64,000 bases of DNA. It comes from a bacterium. Its GTDB lineage: Bacteria > Patescibacteriota > Minisyncoccia > Phycocordibacterales > Zambryskibacteraceae. Shown here piece after piece: positions 1,098-55,555 of the stretch. The notes beneath the pieces were generated by a model. It did no database searches. It was not told the origin of the DNA and worked only from the letters and a program-made list of their open reading frames with translations. Position numbers and translations under genes: made by a program. Positions within the stretch are counted from its first letter, which is position 1. The number at the start of each line of letters is the position of its first letter. Where the stretch lies: positions 96,001-160,000 of the forward strand of contig JAUSGI010000008.1 in NCBI GenBank assembly GCA_030649135.1, written 5' to 3'.

Positions 1098-1358
1098 TTA
1101 AAGTGGACAAACCGTATCCCCCCTCTGACATTTATCGTAATACTCCTGTGTCACGCAATTTAGAGGGACCCCATAATTTACACAACCCGCCGGACATTTT
1201 CCATTGGCATCCGGGTCAACATTACATTGACTATTATCTACAGCGGGCGGCGTCAGATAAACTGCGTTTTGTTTGGTGTAAACAAAATAAGAACCTGCTC
1301 CGATAACCACAATGGCAGCTATGATAAGGGCTATATTTATAAATCCTTTTTGGTGCAT
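1098..1358 (-). CDS. small secreted or membrane-anchored Cys-rich protein with a pilin-like N-terminal leader (MHQKGFINI + TM)
   Basis: The N-terminus MHQKGFINIALIIAAIVVIGAGSYF is almost identical to that of the Hint-domain protein at 54617. Seven Cys lie in the C-terminal 45 aa. Confidence 0.6.
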   Translation of the reverse strand: MHQKGFINIALIIAAIVVIGAGSYFVYTKQNAVYLTPPAVDNSQCNVDPDANGKCPAGCVNYGVPLNCVTQEYYDKCQRGDTVCPL

Positions 1359-26681: not shown

Positions 26682-27661
26682 GAACGTAGTATATCAGATA
26701 CTATTTTGTTAACCTCGTTTGCGTTGTTCGTTTCCATAAGTTTGGCGCGTAAATCCCCTGCTTTATCAAAGCCCGTAACGTAGGCCTTAAAATGTTTCTT
26801 CATCACAGAAAAGTTTTTGTACCCACCGAGCAGTTCTTCAAATAACTTTGTGTGCTCAACCAGCACCCGCAGTTTTTCTTCGGTTGCCGGAACATATCCT
26901 TCCACAAATAGCCACGGGTTTCCGAAAATGGCCCGGCCGAGCATGACACCATCACAGCCCGTCTCTTCGACTCTCATCCTTGCTTCTTTCAAATCTTTAA
27001 CATCCCCATTACCCAAAATTAAAGTGTCTTTACCACTTGCATCACGAATCTCGACTGCCAGTTTGACAAACTCCCAACGAGCGGGCACCTTCGACATTTC
27101 TTTCCTGGTACGAGCATGAATGGTAACCATCGCCACTCCCTCTTTAAGCATTTCTGACAGCCAGCTCTCCAGGTCAGGACGACTGTACCCTATACGAGTT
27201 TTGACCGAGACAGGTAGTGTGCTAGCCCCTTCTTTAGCCGCCCTTACAAGCTCCCGAGCCAGCACCACGTTCTTCATAAGTGATGCGCCGGCACCTTGTT
27301 TCTCGATACTTTTGTCCGGACAACCCATATTTATATCGACACCATCAAAGCCAAGCTCCTTTGCGAGCTCGGCGGCTTTTTTCATATGTTCCGGAGAGGA
27401 GGTAAAGAATTGCGCCACGATTGGCCGCTCCGCTTCGCTATATTCCAGATTCTTCAAAAGTTTCTTTTTCCCCTCTTCCGGCGCAAGTGCCAAGCCGTCG
27501 GCAGAAGTAAATTCTGTCCACATCACGGCGGGTTTACCCCGCCCACCTAGGCGGGGCGAGCCGTACTTAGCGATTATTCTGCGAAAAGCGGCATCCGTAA
27601 CATCCGCCATGGGAGCGAGGACGAAAACAGGTTTTTCTATTTTCTGCCAGAAATTATCCAT
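26678..27661 (-). CDS. tRNA-dihydrouridine synthase
   Basis: VLAPMADVTDAAFR..., GVDINMGCP, TIHARTR motifs. Confidence 0.9.
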   Translation of the reverse strand: MDNFWQKIEKPVFVLAPMADVTDAAFRRIIAKYGSPRLGGRGKPAVMWTEFTSADGLALAPEEGKKKLLKNLEYSEAERPIVAQFFTSSPEHMKKAAELAKELGFDGVDINMGCPDKSIEKQGAGASLMKNVVLARELVRAAKEGASTLPVSVKTRIGYSRPDLESWLSEMLKEGVAMVTIHARTRKEMSKVPARWEFVKLAVEIRDASGKDTLILGNGDVKDLKEARMRVEETGCDGVMLGRAIFGNPWLFVEGYVPATEEKLRVLVEHTKLFEELLGGYKNFSVMKKHFKAYVTGFDKAGDLRAKLMETNNANEVNKIVSDILRS

Positions 27662-30002
27662 TCACGTCCTTTTCCGTCAATTCTATTTCCGAGCCTGAAG
27701 TAATTTCACCGGATATCATCTTCTTGGCAATAACCTGTTCAACAGTCTCCTGTATGGCGCGATTAAGCGGCCGGGCACCGAACTTCGGGTCCATACCTTT
27801 TTTGGTTAGAAATGATATCAAAGAGTCGCTGATTTTAAGAGTGATGCCTTGTTTCTTCAGACGTAAGGTGAGGTGGGACAATAAGCGTTTAGACACCTCA
27901 CGTAAAGATGCTTCGTCGAGGGGATGGAATAGTATCACGCCGTCAAAGCGATTCAATAACTCCGGTTTGAAAATTCCCTTGGCGATTATCTCATTAATAA
28001 TCGTTTCGCGCGCCAGGGAAAGGTCCTTACCGGACTTGACGTATTCAAAGATGAGGTCACTCCCAGCGTTGGAGGTGGCGACAATGATGACATTTCTGGC
28101 ACTCACCTTTTCGCCCCGCATGTCCGAAAAGATTCCCTCATCTATAATCTGGAGAAATAAGTCCAGTACTTTCGAATCTGTTTTTTCAAATTCATCAAGC
28201 AAAAGAACGCCATACGGGTTCTCACGAAGCAAAGTAGTAAGCGTCCCCGGCGTCTTGGACTCAAATGAGCCTATCAATCTGTTTAACGAGTCCGGAGCAT
28301 TATATTCGGACATGTCGAGACGAAGTAATTTGGATGCTTGGCCGAAAAAGACTTCCCCCAAAGCTTTAGCCGTTTCCGTTTTACCAACTCCGGTAGGGCC
28401 GATAAACAGAAAAGAGCCGGCGGGTCTTAACGGATTGCCTATGCCGGAGCGGGCGCGTCTGACAGCGTCGCTCACCGCCTTAATCGCATCATCTTGACCC
28501 ACAATCCTCTCCTTGAGAATAATCTCAAGATTCAAGAGCTTGTCTTTCTCTTCCGGTTTGACAAAACCGGTTGGTATGCCGGTTTTAGACTTGACCGCGG
28601 AGAGAATGTCTTCCTTATTCACTATCCCCCTTCCATCTTGGCTCACTTTCGCTGACGATGTCGCTATAAGATCCATGGCGCTGTCAGCAAGCGGTCTGTC
28701 CACAAAATATTGTTTGGATGCGGCCACAGCTTCAGAGAGCGCCGGGTAGGAAATCAAAATATTCATTTGTTTCTCCAAATGGTTGACCTCCGATTCAAGC
28801 ATTTGCACCAACGCGTCTTCATCGACCGGCAAGACATTTACTTTTTCAAAATGTTGTTTAATCTCGCCCAAGGGTTCGAGCAGACGCTGGTATTCCTCGG
28901 TATTGGAGACGCCCACAATCTGCATCTGCGACGAAGAGAGAAAGGGACTTAACAGGGCCAGCACAGAAACTCCGTAACTATTGCCCGCCGACAAAAAAGC
29001 GGCCATATTCGGTATGACGAATATGACATTACCGGCCCTTTCGGACTCTTGCAGCACCTTTATCAGTTCGCGTTCCAATATCTGACCATTACTTGCCGCC
29101 GCGGAAAGAGTGGAGATTTCAAAAACCCATATTTGTTTGTTGCTTAATGCGGCAGACACTTCGTCTTTCTCTATAAGTTTGTGGAGTTCCTCAAGCACTT
29201 CCATCTTCCCTACCCCGTCGTCACCGACAAGCAAAGCATTGGCTTCATGCGACCGGGACAGAGCAATTTCCAGAAGCTTGGCTTCTTCGATATGGTACCC
29301 TTCCTCACCCATTGAGTCGGAGATTATAAGTGGACGGGCATACTTCATCAGAGAAAATGATTTTCCATACGACCAATCCCGGCCTATGGGGTCTATTTTG
29401 AAAAGATTGTCTTTGCCCCACCATCTTTTTGATTTCAAGATATTAAATCTGACTGACGCGGTCCATGTCGCCGCTCCCAGAAATTCTTCCTCCGTAACGT
29501 GATGAGTGAGAATAAAGTTCTTGAATTCGATATCGGAAGTAAGCAATCCTCCTAGATATCCACGAAGGATGGAATGGCCTCTAGTTAACTTGAAAGAGGC
29601 CGATGTTACCTTAGACTTTCTGTTCGATAAAAAGTTCTTCTGGGATTCCTGGTCTATGCCACAACGCCAAAGTATTTCCCTTCCCAACTTGGCCGACATG
29701 AAGCCGTAAGTTAAATCGCCTTCCGGAGAACCGAAAACTATCAAGGCGAGCTCACAGGCAAATCTACCGGTATCTTTGGAACGCTTAAAATAAAGAGAGT
29801 AAAAGAAACAATCAAACAAAGAGAGTATGAGCCATAACGAGAAAAAGGCGAGACCAAGACCTATGGACCATATTGAAGTAATAGCGAATAATAAAATAAG
29901 GACGGTCTTCACAATACCGCGCGCACGTCGCGGTAAGGTTTGCTCAAGCAGATAAACCGGCTTCCAGGGGGTAAGTGTTTTCTTTAATGTTTCATAATGC
30001 AT
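27654..30002 (-). CDS. ClpA/ClpB-family double-AAA+ ATPase with N-terminal transmembrane segments and a degenerate first nucleotide-binding domain
   Basis: NBD2 is intact ([26 protein letters not shown], sensor). NBD1 has GDDGVGKM and no DE Walker B. Two to three TM helices lie at the N-terminus. Confidence 0.8.
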   Translation of the reverse strand: MHYETLKKTLTPWKPVYLLEQTLPRRARGIVKTVLILLFAITSIWSIGLGLAFFSLWLILSLFDCFFYSLYFKRSKDTGRFACELALIVFGSPEGDLTYGFMSAKLGREILWRCGIDQESQKNFLSNRKSKVTSASFKLTRGHSILRGYLGGLLTSDIEFKNFILTHHVTEEEFLGAATWTASVRFNILKSKRWWGKDNLFKIDPIGRDWSYGKSFSLMKYARPLIISDSMGEEGYHIEEAKLLEIALSRSHEANALLVGDDGVGKMEVLEELHKLIEKDEVSAALSNKQIWVFEISTLSAAASNGQILERELIKVLQESERAGNVIFVIPNMAAFLSAGNSYGVSVLALLSPFLSSSQMQIVGVSNTEEYQRLLEPLGEIKQHFEKVNVLPVDEDALVQMLESEVNHLEKQMNILISYPALSEAVAASKQYFVDRPLADSAMDLIATSSAKVSQDGRGIVNKEDILSAVKSKTGIPTGFVKPEEKDKLLNLEIILKERIVGQDDAIKAVSDAVRRARSGIGNPLRPAGSFLFIGPTGVGKTETAKALGEVFFGQASKLLRLDMSEYNAPDSLNRLIGSFESKTPGTLTTLLRENPYGVLLLDEFEKTDSKVLDLFLQIIDEGIFSDMRGEKVSARNVIIVATSNAGSDLIFEYVKSGKDLSLARETIINEIIAKGIFKPELLNRFDGVILFHPLDEASLREVSKRLLSHLTLRLKKQGITLKISDSLISFLTKKGMDPKFGARPLNRAIQETVEQVIAKKMISGEITSGSEIELTEKDVNG

Positions 30003-47575: not shown

Positions 47576-50251
47576 CTATTTCAGCGCAGGTTCTCTGCTT
47601 GATACAACTGTACTCACATGACCCGAGCGTTTGCTCCTCTTAATATCGAAAGTAAATTGGCCATCTTTCACATCAACCGAAACCGTACCACCGGAAAGCA
47701 CTTTATTGGATATCATCATGGAAGCCACCGGGTTCAGAATTTTTTCCTGAATCAGACGCTTCAGGGGTCTTGCTCCGTACTGTGGATTATAACCTTCTGC
47801 GGCCAAGAGTTCCGACACCGACTCCATGACCGAAAGGTTGATTTCCTTTTCTGCGAGACGCTTCTTAATGATATCGATTTGGATATTAACAATTTCTTTG
47901 ATTGCCTCCTTGGAGAGTATGTCGAAGATAATAATATCGTCAAGACGGTTGAGAAATTCCGGTCGGAAATGCTCTTTGAGGGTCGAGAGCACTTTCTCTT
48001 TAACACCCTCGTAAGTTTCCTTCTCGCCACTGTTGAAGCCGATGGATTGCATCTTGTCTATGTATTGGGCACCAATGTTTGAGGTCATGATGATGACCGT
48101 GTTTTTGAAATTAATAACCCTACCCTTGGCATCGGTCAGACGACCATTATCGAGGATTTGCAATAAAATGTTAAACACCTCCGGATGCGCCTTCTCAATC
48201 TCATCGAAAAGGATGACCGAATATGGCCTGTGTCGCACAGACTCGGCAAAACTGGAACCTTCTTCGAAGCCGACGTATCCCGGTGGCGCGCCAATCAGTT
48301 TGGAGACGGAATGCTTTTCCATAAACTCCGACATATCTACGCGGATGAGTGCCCGTTCATCGTCAAACATAAATTCCGCCAAGGCCTTAGTCAGCTCGGT
48401 CTTACCCACCCCAGTCGGACCAAGAAAGATGAAAGAACCGATAGGACGATTGGGGTCGGAGATACCGGCGCGCGAACGCTTGACGGTGTCAGCAATCTTT
48501 TTGACTGCCTCGCCTTGACCGACAATACGCTTCTTGAGGAATTCTTCCATTCGGGAAAGTTTGGCCGCTTCTTCTTCAAGCATTCTGGAAACCGGGATAC
48601 CGGTCCACCGACTGACTACCAGCGCGATATCGGGTGCGGTAATTTCTTCTTTCAGAATGCTCCTGGAACTTTGAAGTTTTTTCAGACGCTTGGCTTTGGC
48701 TTCTAATTCTTTCTCCAGACCCGGTATCTGGCCGTATCGAAGTTCCGCCGCGCGGGAAAGGTCGGCGCGTGCCTCCGCCGCTTCGGCCTCAAGTCGCAGA
48801 GTTCCCAGAGTTTTTTTAATCTCCTTGATTTCCCCTACCGTTTCTTTCTCATTTTTCCACTTCAACTCTATCTCCGAAGTCTTCTCGCGCAAATCGGCAA
48901 TATCTTTGTCAATAACTTTCAGTCGTGCTTTCACTTTAGGGTTCCCGGACTCTTTCTTAAGTGCTTCCTTCTCGATATCTAACTTCATAATCTTGGAGTG
49001 GGCATCCTGAAGCACCGGCGGCATATTCTCGAGAGAAATTTTGAGAAACGAAGATGCCTCGTCTATAAGGTCTACCGCTTTATCCGGCAAAAACCTGTCA
49101 GTGATATAACGCGAAGAGAGATTAACGGCTGCTTGGATAGAATCATCGGTAATACGCACCCCATGATAGAGTTCGTACCTTTCTTTCAATCCACGCAAGA
49201 TGGTCACGGCATCATCGATAGAAGGTTCCTGAACATAAACGGGCTGGAAACGGCGGGTCAAAGCCGGGTCTTTCTCGATATGTTTCTGATATTCACGCAG
49301 AGTTGTGGCACCAATAGCCCGTAGTTCCCCTCGAGCGAGTGAAGGTTTGAGCATATTGGAGGCATCCATAGCCCCTTCCGCGGCACCGGCGCCGACGATG
49401 GTATGAATTTCATCTATAAACAGAACAATTTTGCCTTCCGATTTTTCGATTTCTTTAATGATATTTTTGAGCCGCTCTTCAAATTCGCCGCGGTACTTGG
49501 TGCCGGCAATCAAGAGTCCGATATCGAGAGACACCAATTCCTTATCCCGCAGAGATTCCGGGACGTTGCCGCTTGCCATGCGTAGTGCCAGTCCTTCGGC
49601 AATGGCAGTCTTACCGACGCCCGCTTCACCGATGAGAATCGGATTATTTTTGGTACGGCGGGAAAGAATTTGGATAATGCGCGAGATTTCATCATCGCGA
49701 CCAATAACCGGGTCGAGTTTATTTGCCTTGGCAAGCATGGTTAGGGAACGGGTGTATTTGGAAAGAGATTTATATTTCTTCGATTCTTTCGGCTCGGTGG
49801 GGCTGGTCTTTTTCAGTTCCTCAAGCACCTTTAGAATTGTTTGTCTGTCGATTTTAAATTTTAAAAGAAGTTCACGCGCTTCTCCCGGAACATCGAGTAC
49901 CGCGATAAATAGATGCTCGGTGGAAACAAATTCATCTCCCAGAGATTGGGCCACCTTGTTACTCGACTCGATAGTATGAGCCAGTTCCGGGGTGAGATAA
50001 ATCTGGTAGGAGGGCGAGATGGTCTGACTAGTCTCGGAATTTTCTATGGTATCGAGCACCGAATCGGTCAGGAGAATGGTATCGACATCCATCTTGTCCA
50101 AAATAGAAATGGCCATGCTCTCCTCCTGTAGCAAAAGAGCAGCCAAAAGATGCATGGGGTTGACGTGATTCTGGCCACGCTCAATAGCCAGCTCATGGGC
50201 CTTCCTTATAACCTCTTTTGCCTTAGTGGTGAAGTGGGCAAATGGCTGCAT
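47576..50251 (-). CDS. clpB: chaperone ClpB
   Basis: Two intact AAA+ modules, middle coiled-coil, 891 aa. Confidence 0.97.
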
Positions 50252-54008: not shown

Positions 54009-54041
54009 TAGGCTATTATAACCTACCCATAGTTAATATAG

Positions 54042-54112
54042 TGCGAGATGCGAGAATCGAACTCGCGCCCGATGCTTGGGAAGCACCAGTTCTGCCACTA
54101 AACTAATCTCGC
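54042..54112 (-). tRNA. tRNA-Gly(CCC)
   Basis: GCGAGAT.../ATCTCGC, D-stem GTTT/GAAC, anticodon stem GGTGC/GCATC, loop TTCCCAA. Confidence 0.8.
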
Positions 54113-54113
54113 A

Positions 54114-54200
54114 TGGTGCCCGGGGTGGGCATCGAACCCACACGACCTTGCGGTCACGAAATTTTAAGTCTCGCGCGTATACCAATTCCGCCACCCGGGC
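54114..54200 (-). tRNA. tRNA-Leu(TAA), type II, CCA encoded
   Basis: GCCCGGG/CCCGGGC, loop CTTAAAA, long variable arm, A + CCA. Confidence 0.82.
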
Positions 54201-54275
54201 TGGAGGCGTAGGCGGGAATCGAACCCGCGCATATCGGTTTTGCAGACCGCCGCGTTTCCACTTCGCCACTACGCC
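54201..54275 (-). tRNA. tRNA-Cys(GCA), CCA encoded
   Basis: GGCGTAG/CTACGCC, loop CTGCAAA, discriminator U + CCA. Directly abuts tRNA-Leu. Confidence 0.72.
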
Positions 54276-54348
54276 ATTGTCCAGCTAACTAACTTTTATA
54301 CATTATCATAATTGATAAATCATTGCTTTTTTGAAATACTGTACTCTT

Positions 54349-54391
54349 ATACCCCGCTTCACCCCGCCATGGCGGGGCGAGACGGGGCAAG
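54349..54391. repeat. GC-rich palindromic element (CCCCGCCATGGCGGGG) in the divergent tRNA promoter/leader region
   Basis: Family member; see 47472-47523. Confidence 0.45.
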
Positions 54392-54464
54392 CGCGCCTAT
54401 AGCTCAGCTGGTAGAGCAGATCCCTCTTAAGGATAAGGTCGCAGGTTCGATCCCTGCTGGGCGC
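54392..54464 (+). tRNA. tRNA-Lys(CTT)
   Basis: GCGCCTA TAGCTCAGCTGGTAGAGCA, loop CTCTTAA, variable AGGTC, T-loop TTCGATC. Confidence 0.85.
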
Positions 54465-54466
54465 AC

Positions 54467-54547
54467 TGGGCGGGTGGTGAAATGGTAGACACGCCAGTTT
54501 TAGGAACTGGTGCCGCAAGGCATGGAGGTTCAAGTCCTCTCCCGCCC
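54467..54547 (+). tRNA. tRNA-Leu(TAG), type II
   Basis: GGGCGGG/CCCGCCC, anticodon stem CCAGT/ACTGG, loop TTTAGGA, long variable arm. Confidence 0.8.
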
Positions 54548-54616
54548 ACAACAACATCTTTCCTTTTCTTCGATTTTTTGCTAAAATCAGCGATATAGTT
54601 AATCTAACAAAATAAT

Positions 54617-55555
54617 ATGAATCACCAAAAAGGGTTTATCAATATAGTGTATACGGTAGTAGTAGTTGCTCTGCTTATTGGAGCGGGAGCATACCTTACC
54701 ATCCGACAAATCAATAAACCGTATATTTCCCCTACCGCCACCACTACTCCTCCAGGCGCCACCACTACTCCTCCTACTCCACCGCCACCACCCGCACCAG
54801 GAGTTTGTACTGCCGATGTCAAACAATGTCCTAACGGCACTTACGTAAGCCGAAGTGGTCCTAATTGCACCTTCGCCGCTTGTCCATCTTCTTTGCCACA
54901 ACCACAATTCCAGCTCATCTCTATGCGTGAAGGAGAACGGGAAAGTTCGTTCCTGCTGGAAAGAATTTATACAGACCGCGTGACTGGTCTTAATTTCGGA
55001 GAATATCCGGTAGCGATGGAACAGGGCAATCCAGTCACTTTGCGTCTCGGTGAAGTCGTAAGCAACGGTTGTACTGTCACACTCACGCTTACCAAAATTG
55101 AAGGAAATGTCGCTACGTTTAGCAAGAAAACAGATTCCAGTCAGATTTGCCCGATTTGTCTTGCTCGCAATACGTTAATCGATACTCCTTCTGGTACAAT
55201 TCCCGTACAAGATTTGGAAAAAGGCATGGCTATTTGGACTCTAAACCGATTAGGCGAGCGTATCTCCGCTATTGTCGTAGAAACTACGAGAACTCCTGTA
55301 CCCCCGACCCATCAAGTGATTCATCTTGTTCTTAATGATGGCCGAGAAGTATTCGTATCCGGAGGACACCCAGTTACCAATGGGCAAAAAGTACAAGACC
55401 TCTTGGTCGGTGAAGTTTATGACGGCTCTTATGTATCGAGTGTAGAATCTATCCCCTACCGCGAGCAGGCTACATATGATGTCTTACCATCAGGCGAGAC
55501 CGGGTTCTATTGGGCTAACGGCATCTTACTTGACAGCACACTGAATCATAAGTGA
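54617..55555 (+). CDS. secreted/membrane-anchored protein with pilin-like leader (MNHQKGFINI + TM), Pro/Thr linker, Cys-rich module and C-terminal Hint (Hedgehog/intein-like) domain
   Basis: Hint block A: CLARNTLIDTPSGTIPVQDLEKG. Hint block B/G: VFVSGGHPV and TYDVLPSGETGFYWANGILLDST. The leader is shared with the 1098-1358 product. Confidence 0.7.
   Translation: MNHQKGFINIVYTVVVVALLIGAGAYLTIRQINKPYISPTATTTPPGATTTPPTPPPPPAPGVCTADVKQCPNGTYVSRSGPNCTFAACPSSLPQPQFQLISMREGERESSFLLERIYTDRVTGLNFGEYPVAMEQGNPVTLRLGEVVSNGCTVTLTLTKIEGNVATFSKKTDSSQICPICLARNTLIDTPSGTIPVQDLEKGMAIWTLNRLGERISAIVVETTRTPVPPTHQVIHLVLNDGREVFVSGGHPVTNGQKVQDLLVGEVYDGSYVSSVESIPYREQATYDVLPSGETGFYWANGILLDSTLNHK

Follow-up and report, generated by a model that had tools for sequence, protein, structure and literature searches.

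Hint chemistry underlies protein splicing and Hedgehog lipidation, and it is widely used in protein engineering. The Hint superfamily comprises inteins, the Hog domains of Hedgehog proteins, and bacterial intein-like (BIL) domains of the A and B types (PMC7765530). The defining feature of A-type BILs is a C-terminal His-Asn, and they can splice or cleave at the C-terminus (PMC4031507); B-type BILs were described by Amitai et al. in 2003, whose work is drawn on here to the extent that it is recounted in two later papers (PMC4031507, PMC7765530). In this study, we examined a gene for a protein that ends in a Hint domain. The gene lies on the forward strand, at positions 54617..55555, of a 64,000-nucleotide stretch of DNA (termed 'the window') from a bacterium of the Zambryskibacteraceae in the Patescibacteriota (assembly GCA_030649135.1, contig JAUSGI010000008.1, positions 96,001 to 160,000). 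The open reading frame (ORF) starts with ATG and encodes a 312-amino-acid precursor followed by a stop codon. These boundaries, previously proposed in a sequence-only reading of the window, agree exactly with the ORF list, with the sequence itself, and with an identical protein (P0001) already deposited from a metagenome-assembled genome (MAG), where it is encoded on a 216,895-bp contig.

We consider it somewhat probable that this protein is an exported, N-terminally anchored precursor in which the Hint domain serves as a self-removing C-terminal pro-domain. The predicted scissile bond is located between Ile180 and Cys181, within the junction Cys178-Pro179-Ile180|Cys181 (55148..55159, + strand), and its placement draws on the residue statistics of this junction and on homologues that lack the Hint domain.

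The terminal domain, comprising residues 181-312 (55157..55552, + strand), is a Hint domain, and this assignment stands well above chance. Among Pfam models, only Hint_2 (PF13403) reaches its threshold for the window protein. This model aligns with residues 180-251 (E 2.4e-6) at 28.4 bits, which is exactly its gathering score, and the alignment spans positions 1-81 of the 147 in the model, its N-terminal half; homologues score 14 to 32 bits. Vint and an intein N-terminal TIGRFAM yield weak matches. The Pfam and TIGRFAM searches were run with an E ceiling of 10, but HMMER filters discard most matches above ~0.1. When the window protein was aligned as a single sequence, its C-terminal half matched a consensus intein. 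A profile built from 25 family sequences and compared with the sequences of the Protein Data Bank (PDB) likewise matched the consensus intein (E 3.5e-7), along with the gp41-1 intein (E 1.6e-3) and a BIL domain from Clostridium thermocellum (E 0.023).

Structure comparison gives a similar picture. An AlphaFold2 model built on 115 homologues, with a mean predicted local distance difference test score (pLDDT) of 87.7, was used to search the PDB with Foldseek. This search returned 51 chains at E<=1e-3, and each of the 50 matches listed is an intein, a BIL or a Hog domain. The top match is the Ssp DnaB mini-intein (1mi8), with an E-value of 4e-7 and a target-normalised template modelling (TM) score of 0.79. 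Other matches include a BIL (2lwy, TM 0.79), the Tetrahymena BUBL BIL (6y75, TM 0.73) and a Hedgehog domain (1at0, TM 0.68). Thus the Pfam match, the family profile and the fold search all uphold the C-terminal Hint with intein blocks proposed in the sequence-only reading. The more specific suggestion of a Hog identity does not hold: PF01079 (Hog) gave no match to the window protein, for which Hint_2 and Vint alone were reported under the ceiling given above, the sterol-recognition region is missing, and residue -1 is Ile rather than Gly.

Four residues of the Hint domain that align with the catalytic positions of inteins are invariant in all 115 aligned homologues. These are Cys181 (Cys1 of the Hint), which had previously been put forward as the nucleophile; Ser248 and His251 of block B (Ser248-Gly-Gly-His251, equivalent to the intein TxxH; 55358..55369, + strand); and Asp288 of block F (55478..55480, + strand). 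In inteins, Thr B:7, His B:10 and Asp F:4 act at the N-terminal scissile bond, as summarized in a review of the splicing mechanism (PMC4031507). Because the residues for an N-S acyl shift at Cys181 are invariant, autocatalytic N-terminal cleavage at this position would be the natural reading of the alignment.

The machinery for C-terminal cleavage and splicing, namely the block F His, the penultimate His and the terminal Asn, is absent. In the 115-member alignment, the block F His is replaced by Thr295-Gly. A block-G-like ANGILL segment is then followed by (G/D)306-Ser307-Thr308-Leu309 where inteins carry His-Asn/+1, with Ser307-Thr308-Leu309 of the window protein at 55535..55543 (+ strand). 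None of 260 family proteins has His-Asn within the last 12 residues and the Hint ends the protein, as anticipated by the earlier claim that both an HN-Cys splice junction and a C-extein are missing. The S-T-L end is shared by 230 of 252 members, in most of which a single K, R or H separates it from the stop; a terminal motif of the ST[L/I/F] type could be recognised in 247 members, and in 208 of these it is followed by 1-3 residues. The distance from Cys1 to the C-terminus is also nearly fixed, being 130 amino acids in 141 of 252 members and 129-135 amino acids in 234 of them. For the best 150 of 2,491 profile matches, the match reaches the C-terminus, or nearly so, in nearly all cases; the exceptions are one protein that extends ~30 amino acids past the match and a few that extend 10-24 amino acids. 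The window protein is also free of a downstream toxin, again as proposed earlier, with no domain after the Hint and with an RNase R gene in a different frame as the next ORF.

The junction that precedes the Hint is nearly uniform. Position -3 is Cys in 244 of 253 members, position -2 is Pro in 247 of 253, and position -1 is Ile in 231 or Val in 13, regardless of the upstream domain, such that Cys-Pro-Ile|Cys forms the junction in ~95% of members. In the window protein, the domain directly upstream is a conserved, seven-stranded beta-sandwich of ~85 amino acids (residues 95-177; 54899..55147, + strand) as modelled by AlphaFold2, with G124, P131 and C152 invariant. The middle domain noted in the sequence-only reading is therefore present, but it is shorter than the ~110 amino acids proposed there. 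This beta-sandwich would form the C-terminal domain of the mature protein.

When the beta domain by itself was used as a profile, 60 short proteins were retrieved, among which 34 clusters stop exactly at ...Cys-Pro-Ile (or Leu or Val). These Hint-less homologues share K-G|F leaders, the 4-Cys module and the beta domain with the window protein. Five of their loci, on contigs of 11-78 kb, were read directly. The stop codon is TAA or TAG in all five, and no remnant of a Hint follows it in any of them. Downstream of the stops are the next gene (20 nt away at locus L088) or a terminator-like hairpin (L092). The nearest relative is Hint-bearing for nine of the 34 Hint-less clusters, and hence the two states are interleaved. 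Beta domains are up to 86% identical between Hint-bearing and Hint-less proteins. For example, P0079 (304 amino acids, with Hint) and P0282 (159 amino acids, Hint-less) are 67% identical over all of P0282, and their alignment stops at GGCPI.

Alleles that differ precisely at the predicted scissile bond have the appearance of intein-containing and intein-free gene pairs. Short of biochemistry, the Hint-less homologues are the strongest available support for a predicted mature C-terminus at Ile-1 and for a ...CPI-COOH end that is likely functional when free. They would mark Ile180|Cys181 as the scissile bond, and their sequences show that the Hint is dispensable, or evolutionarily optional.

A selenocysteine, or a recoded UGA, at the position of Cys1 was also considered as an explanation for the many homologues that end in ...CPI. 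This was ruled out by the TAA or TAG stop codons in all five loci, each followed by the next gene or a terminator.

Other short proteins end in different ways. A group comprising P0261-P0270 and P0278-P0280 carries the beta domain, followed by CPIC and a tail of 4-12 residues (W/F-x-Q-x-A-L...), and has neither a Hint nor an obvious signal peptide. Two further short proteins end ...CPIT-stop. In the CPIC-tail and CPIT-stop proteins, the junction may have decayed or taken an alternative form. Within the window itself, an 86-amino-acid ORF on the reverse strand (1098..1358) has a leader of the type seen in the Hint protein (MHQKGFINI...), six cysteines and the C-terminus ...VCPL-stop, which resembles the Cys-Pro-Ile/Leu terminus of the Hint-less homologues. 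No homologue of this candidate gene was found in the protein database.

The distribution of cysteines was used to evaluate which of them might be paired. The window protein has seven, at positions 64, 71, 84, 89, 152, 178 and 181, and both Cys152 and Cys178 are invariant in the 115-member alignment. The number of cysteines upstream of the junction, including the one at -3, is even in 218 of 227 members and exactly two in 63, and the latter have only the equivalent of Cys152 plus Cys-3. In 225 of the 227 members, Cys1 is the sole cysteine of the Hint. From these counts, Cys64, Cys71, Cys84 and Cys89 would be paired among themselves, and Cys152 is probably bonded to Cys178. Because the upstream cysteine count is even and the Hint has no further cysteine, Cys1 (Cys181) is predicted to be the lone free thiol, as befits a nucleophile.

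From the computed Hint fold, its terminal position, the pattern of conservation and the Hint-less homologues that end at -1, we infer cleavage, disulfide pairing and hydrolysis as the resolving step in a pathway of the following form. The precursor would be exported with its N-terminus anchored in the membrane, leaving the stalk, the 4-Cys module, the beta-sandwich and the Hint outside the cell, where the upstream cysteines would oxidise. Once the Hint has folded, Cys181 would attack the carbonyl of Ile180 in an N-to-S acyl shift aided by Ser248, His251 and Asp288, and the resulting thioester would be resolved, most likely by water. This would release the 132-amino-acid Hint and leave a mature surface protein ending in ...Cys178-Pro-Ile180-COOH, whose tail would be pinned to the beta-sandwich by the probable Cys178-Cys152 disulfide. 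Splicing is not expected, as nothing lies downstream of the Hint to be joined. It is our guess that the beta-sandwich is a surface-binding module. The Hint could serve in regulation or maturation as a pro-domain, or it could be a 'terminal mini-intein' that is tolerated and is removed without trace.

This domain is widespread. A word-indexed search found 765 relatives. A profile was also run exhaustively against 1.84 billion cluster representatives, of which 2,491 matched at E<=1e-3 and 692 at E<=1e-30, and this sets the family size at 2,491 or more clusters at 50% identity. About half of the best profile matches cover the Hint alone and have other domains upstream. The Pfam partners that precede the Hint include TIG, PG_binding_1, beta-helix/NosD, Kazal together with dockerin, and TspO/MBR, while the commonest partner is a beta-sandwich of the type found in the window protein. 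Because the partner domains vary and the signals include lipoprotein and Sec types, the Hint can be regarded as a module placed at the C-terminus of extracytoplasmic proteins. A location at the cell surface fits with the extracytoplasmic partners and with the Sec, lipoprotein or K-G|F signals. An unusual partner is seen in P0014 (423 amino acids), whose beta-sandwich and Hint are preceded by an entire TspO/MBR membrane protein (PF03073, E 4.5e-49).

When one genome per species was scanned, 189 loci were identified. The bacterial hosts are MAGs of the Parcubacteria, Microgenomates and Peregrinibacteria, as well as Chloroflexi (Anaerolineae and Dehalococcoidia) and Acidimicrobiia. Archaeal hosts are Nitrosopumilaceae, Nitrosarchaeum, Nitrosotalea, Micrarchaeota, Woesearchaeota, Methanoperedens and Methanosarcinales. 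The family is therefore not specific to reduced-genome bacteria of the Candidate Phyla Radiation (CPR), since it is also present in Thaumarchaeota, DPANN archaea, Methanoperedens, Chloroflexi and Acidimicrobiia. Among the thaumarchaeal hosts is the cultured Ca. Nitrosotalea devanaterra, which has a complete genome (LN890280.1). Its 434-amino-acid homologue (L033 2332..3636; LN890280.1 positions ~1,245,677-1,246,981) begins with a Sec-type signal and an additional N-terminal domain, followed by the beta-sandwich, a C-P-L|C junction and the terminal Hint. Over 266 residues, it shares 42% identity with the window protein (E 8e-73). Such identity between proteins from different domains of life is suggestive of horizontal transfer between organisms that live together in soil and groundwater.

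Some records at NCBI already label members of this family 'Hint domain-containing protein', and the precomputed annotations of P0003, P0069 and P0078 list PF27023 and PF27854, which are newer than the Pfam copy used here and one of which might already model the 4-Cys module or the beta-sandwich. A literature search on PF13403/Hint_2 returned only the unrelated HINT2 gene, and no paper was found that links Hint domains to CPR or Thaumarchaeota. The clade is apparently undescribed.

The order of parts in the window protein is that of Hedgehog, as the sequence-only reading had noted: an export signal or anchor, an N-terminal domain, and a Hint at the extreme C-terminus. This raises the question, also touched on in that reading, of whether the Cys181 thioester is resolved by ligation rather than by hydrolysis. 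The acceptor could be a lipid, a component of the envelope or S-layer, or a molecule of a host cell, and the beta-sandwich would become covalently attached through Ile180. Invariant N-cleavage residues and display on a long stalk at the cell surface are both compatible with such chemistry, and the Hint with its S-T-L-basic tail is conserved beyond the need of a simple leaving group. However, the Hint stops 1-3 residues past its last strand and lacks any sterol-recognition or acceptor-binding extension. The hosts span bacteria and archaea with unrelated envelopes and lipids, which leaves no single obvious acceptor, and no conserved neighbour gene points to a partner; none was found around the window gene or around its homologues. 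Moreover, the Hint-less ...CPI-COOH homologues are common and interleaved with Hint-bearing forms, which argues that the mature protein works without an adduct. If the free ...CPI-COOH end is functional, as these homologues suggest, then an adduct would therefore not be obligatory. For these reasons, we regard ligation as unlikely. A bolder version, in which the Hint is a prokaryotic counterpart of Hedgehog autoprocessing whose thioester is captured by a nucleophile from its own envelope or from a partner or host, with the Hint-less paralogues being non-reactive forms, seems to us somewhat more unlikely still.

A different role has to be weighed for the N-terminus. The leader MNHQKG|F and hydrophobic helix (residues 1-32; 54617..54712, + strand) present a Gly-1/Phe+1 site after a short basic segment, with the helix modelled at residues 7-32, and could be an export signal or a membrane anchor. 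Type IV prepilins are cut by prepilin peptidase at such a K-G|F site, and a pseudopilin of this kind could be assembled into, or displayed on, a pilus, where the Hint would process cargo at the tip. In favor of this possibility, Gly-1 and Phe+1 follow a basic leader of 5-6 residues and precede ~20 hydrophobic residues, and Q-K-G-F-x-N-I is conserved beyond what a plain Sec n-region would need. However, the K-G|F leader is present in just 91 of 243 complete family members, and Sec or lipoprotein signals occur in other members. Among these 91 leaders, position +5 is I, L or V in 73 and Glu in none, and +3 is Asn in 60. Neither TIGR02532 nor the Pfam N_methyl model (PF07963) was reported for the window protein at the E ceiling of 10, where the HMMER filters drop most matches above ~0.1, and a Pfam scan of 19 ORFs of the window showed no pilus genes. 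The KGF motif lacking a +5 Glu was thus read correctly in the earlier work, whereas a pilin-type leader is not a trait of the family and has no match to a prepilin hidden Markov model. We consider a pilin-like function distinctly improbable. Instead, the leader may act as a signal-anchor specific to its lineage, or may represent a Sec signal or a class III signal without Glu; in the Sec case, signal peptidase could cut at the G-A-G-A|Y stretch.

The C-P-I-C sequence of the junction, maintained in ~95% of members whatever the upstream domain, is also reminiscent of a redox trap. A disulfide between Cys-3 and Cys1 controls N-cleavage in an engineered Ssp DnaE intein and natively in the Pyrococcus abyssi MoaA intein (PMC3922620), and the redox-trap structure 3nzm is among the Foldseek matches. 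By analogy, a Cys178-Cys181 disulfide of the CPxC type, formed outside the cell, could block the acyl shift until a reductant is met. However, pairing of Cys-3 with Cys1 predicts an odd upstream cysteine count, whereas the observed count is even in 218 of 227 members and exactly two in 63. In addition, the Hint-less homologues retain Cys-3 in the absence of Cys1, which indicates that Cys-3 has another partner. Cysteine parity thus disfavours the redox trap as a reading of C-P-I-C, and we judge a redox-gated switch very unlikely. The least credible alternative is that autoprocessing has been lost and that the Hint now plays a structural or binding role at the distal end of a surface protein. 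In its favor, cleavage is so far a prediction and strong conservation extends over the whole domain. Against it, precisely the four N-cleavage residues do not vary between bacteria and archaea, whereas those for C-cleavage have been lost. The Hint-less relatives, moreover, terminate exactly at -1, an observation that makes little sense unless this is the functional C-terminus.

Several points weigh against the proposal of a self-removing pro-domain. The match to Hint_2 is only at threshold and covers half of the model, and the disulfide pairing is derived from counts rather than from coordinates. Two features could slow the reaction, namely the Ser that takes the place of Thr in block B and the beta-branched Ile at -1; inteins, however, tolerate both. 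The Hint-less homologues can dispense with an adduct, but Hint-bearing proteins could still make one. Conservation of the entire Hint and its S-T-L tail goes beyond the obvious need of a pro-domain and hints at an additional role, and neither the pro-domain nor the mini-intein idea explains why conservation of the Hint and the S-T-L-basic tail is so high. Finally, no paper describing the family was found.

Although the chemistry proposed is expected for a Hint domain, the size and spread of the clade and its Hint-less controls give a clean, testable system. The Hint-less homologues, whose ends coincide with the predicted scissile bond, serve as a natural control, which makes both the cut site and the choice between hydrolysis and ligation directly testable. 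The cultured Ca. Nitrosotalea devanaterra offers a tractable host for the question of cleavage. If cleavage is efficient and traceless, then the domain would be a candidate self-removing C-terminal tag for disulfide-rich extracytoplasmic proteins. If ligation were true, it would add a new mode of surface attachment for organisms in which little is understood about interactions between cells, and thioester capture would provide for covalent anchoring or adhesion in CPR, DPANN and Thaumarchaeota.

The remaining parts of the protein lie between the leader and the beta-sandwich, and everything beyond the N-terminal helix is predicted to be extracellular. The Pro/Thr-rich disordered stalk (residues 33-61; 54713..54799, + strand) was evident from the sequence; pLDDT values are low over its Thr/Pro-rich stretch at residues 38-61 and fall below 50 at residues 47-56. 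A 4-Cys mini-module (residues 62-90; 54800..54886, + strand) follows with the pattern C64-x6-C71-P-x-G-x9-C84-x4-C89, which recurs in 65 of 320 related proteins and has no Pfam match. Both the linker and the 4-Cys module had been noticed in the sequence-only reading.

The gene sits between a cluster of five tRNA genes (54041-54549) and the RNase R gene. The tRNA genes form two divergent groups, with Gly-CCC, Leu-TAA and Cys-GCA on the reverse strand and Lys-CTT and Leu-TAG on the forward strand. The RNase R gene (RNB domain, E 2e-110) is called from a GTG start codon, which has a 4-nt overlap (GTGA, 55552..55555) with the stop codon of the Hint gene; the two genes may be co-transcribed, though functionally unrelated. 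Further neighbours are the housekeeping genes for ATCase, RbfA, IF-2 and SMC. No second copy of the Hint gene is present within the window.

Elsewhere in the window, a 305-amino-acid ORF on the reverse strand (60294..61214) carries a NusB-family domain (residues 9-138) and a NUDIX hydrolase (residues 170-287), which is an uncommon fusion. There are also two ClpB-like AAA+ genes, both on the reverse strand (27654..30002 and 47576..50251). The 781-amino-acid ClpB-like protein has Pfam matches only to the second AAA module, the lid and the D2-small domain, and lacks the Clp_N and first-AAA matches found in the 890-amino-acid one; it may be a divergent paralogue.

When compared with known systems, the clade belongs to the Hint superfamily and is closest to B-type BIL/Hint_2 domains, yet it lies at the threshold of that model. 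Like B-type BILs, its members have the Hint fold, blocks A, B and F, and Cys1, and lack a C-terminal His-Asn. Both are found in variable secreted or surface proteins, and in both cleavage rather than splicing is expected. The clade differs in being strictly terminal, with 130 amino acids to the stop, in having a fixed Cys-Pro-Ile|Cys junction and an ANGILL-x-S-T-L-basic end, and in retaining the block-G-like ANGILL itself. It is also often associated with a dedicated beta-sandwich, has Hint-less alleles, and occurs in CPR, DPANN, Thaumarchaeota and Chloroflexi rather than in the classical proteobacterial hosts. A-type BILs such as that of C. thermocellum (2lwy), and the Tetrahymena BUBL BIL (6y75), share Cys1 and the fold (TM 0.79 and 0.73, respectively), but the C-terminal His-Asn that defines the A type is missing from the clade.

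More distant systems share fewer of these characteristics. The window protein gave no PT-HINT match in Pfam, and the clade differs from pre-toxin Hint domains in that no toxin follows the Hint. Intein redox traps (Ssp DnaE, 3nzm; Pab MoaA) resemble the clade in the Cys at -3 to Cys1 within C-P-x-C, whereas the cysteine counts suggest that Cys-3 of the clade pairs upstream and not with Cys1. Hedgehog (1at0, TM 0.68) provides the same succession of signal, N-terminal cargo and C-terminal Hint, and the same predicted N-S acyl shift at a Cys using T/SxxH and Asp. In contrast with Hog domains, the clade has no PF01079 match and no sterol-recognition region, carries Ile at -1 where Hog has Gly, and is found in prokaryotic hosts.

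Mini-inteins (1mi8; gp41-1, 6qaz) yield the best matches in fold and sequence (TM 0.77-0.79) and have blocks A, B, F and part of G in common with the clade. Unlike them, the clade domain is not inserted in a host protein and has no C-extein, His-Asn, block F His or homing endonuclease; it cannot splice. However, the two are alike in one further respect, namely that alleles bearing the element and alleles free of it differ precisely at the junction.

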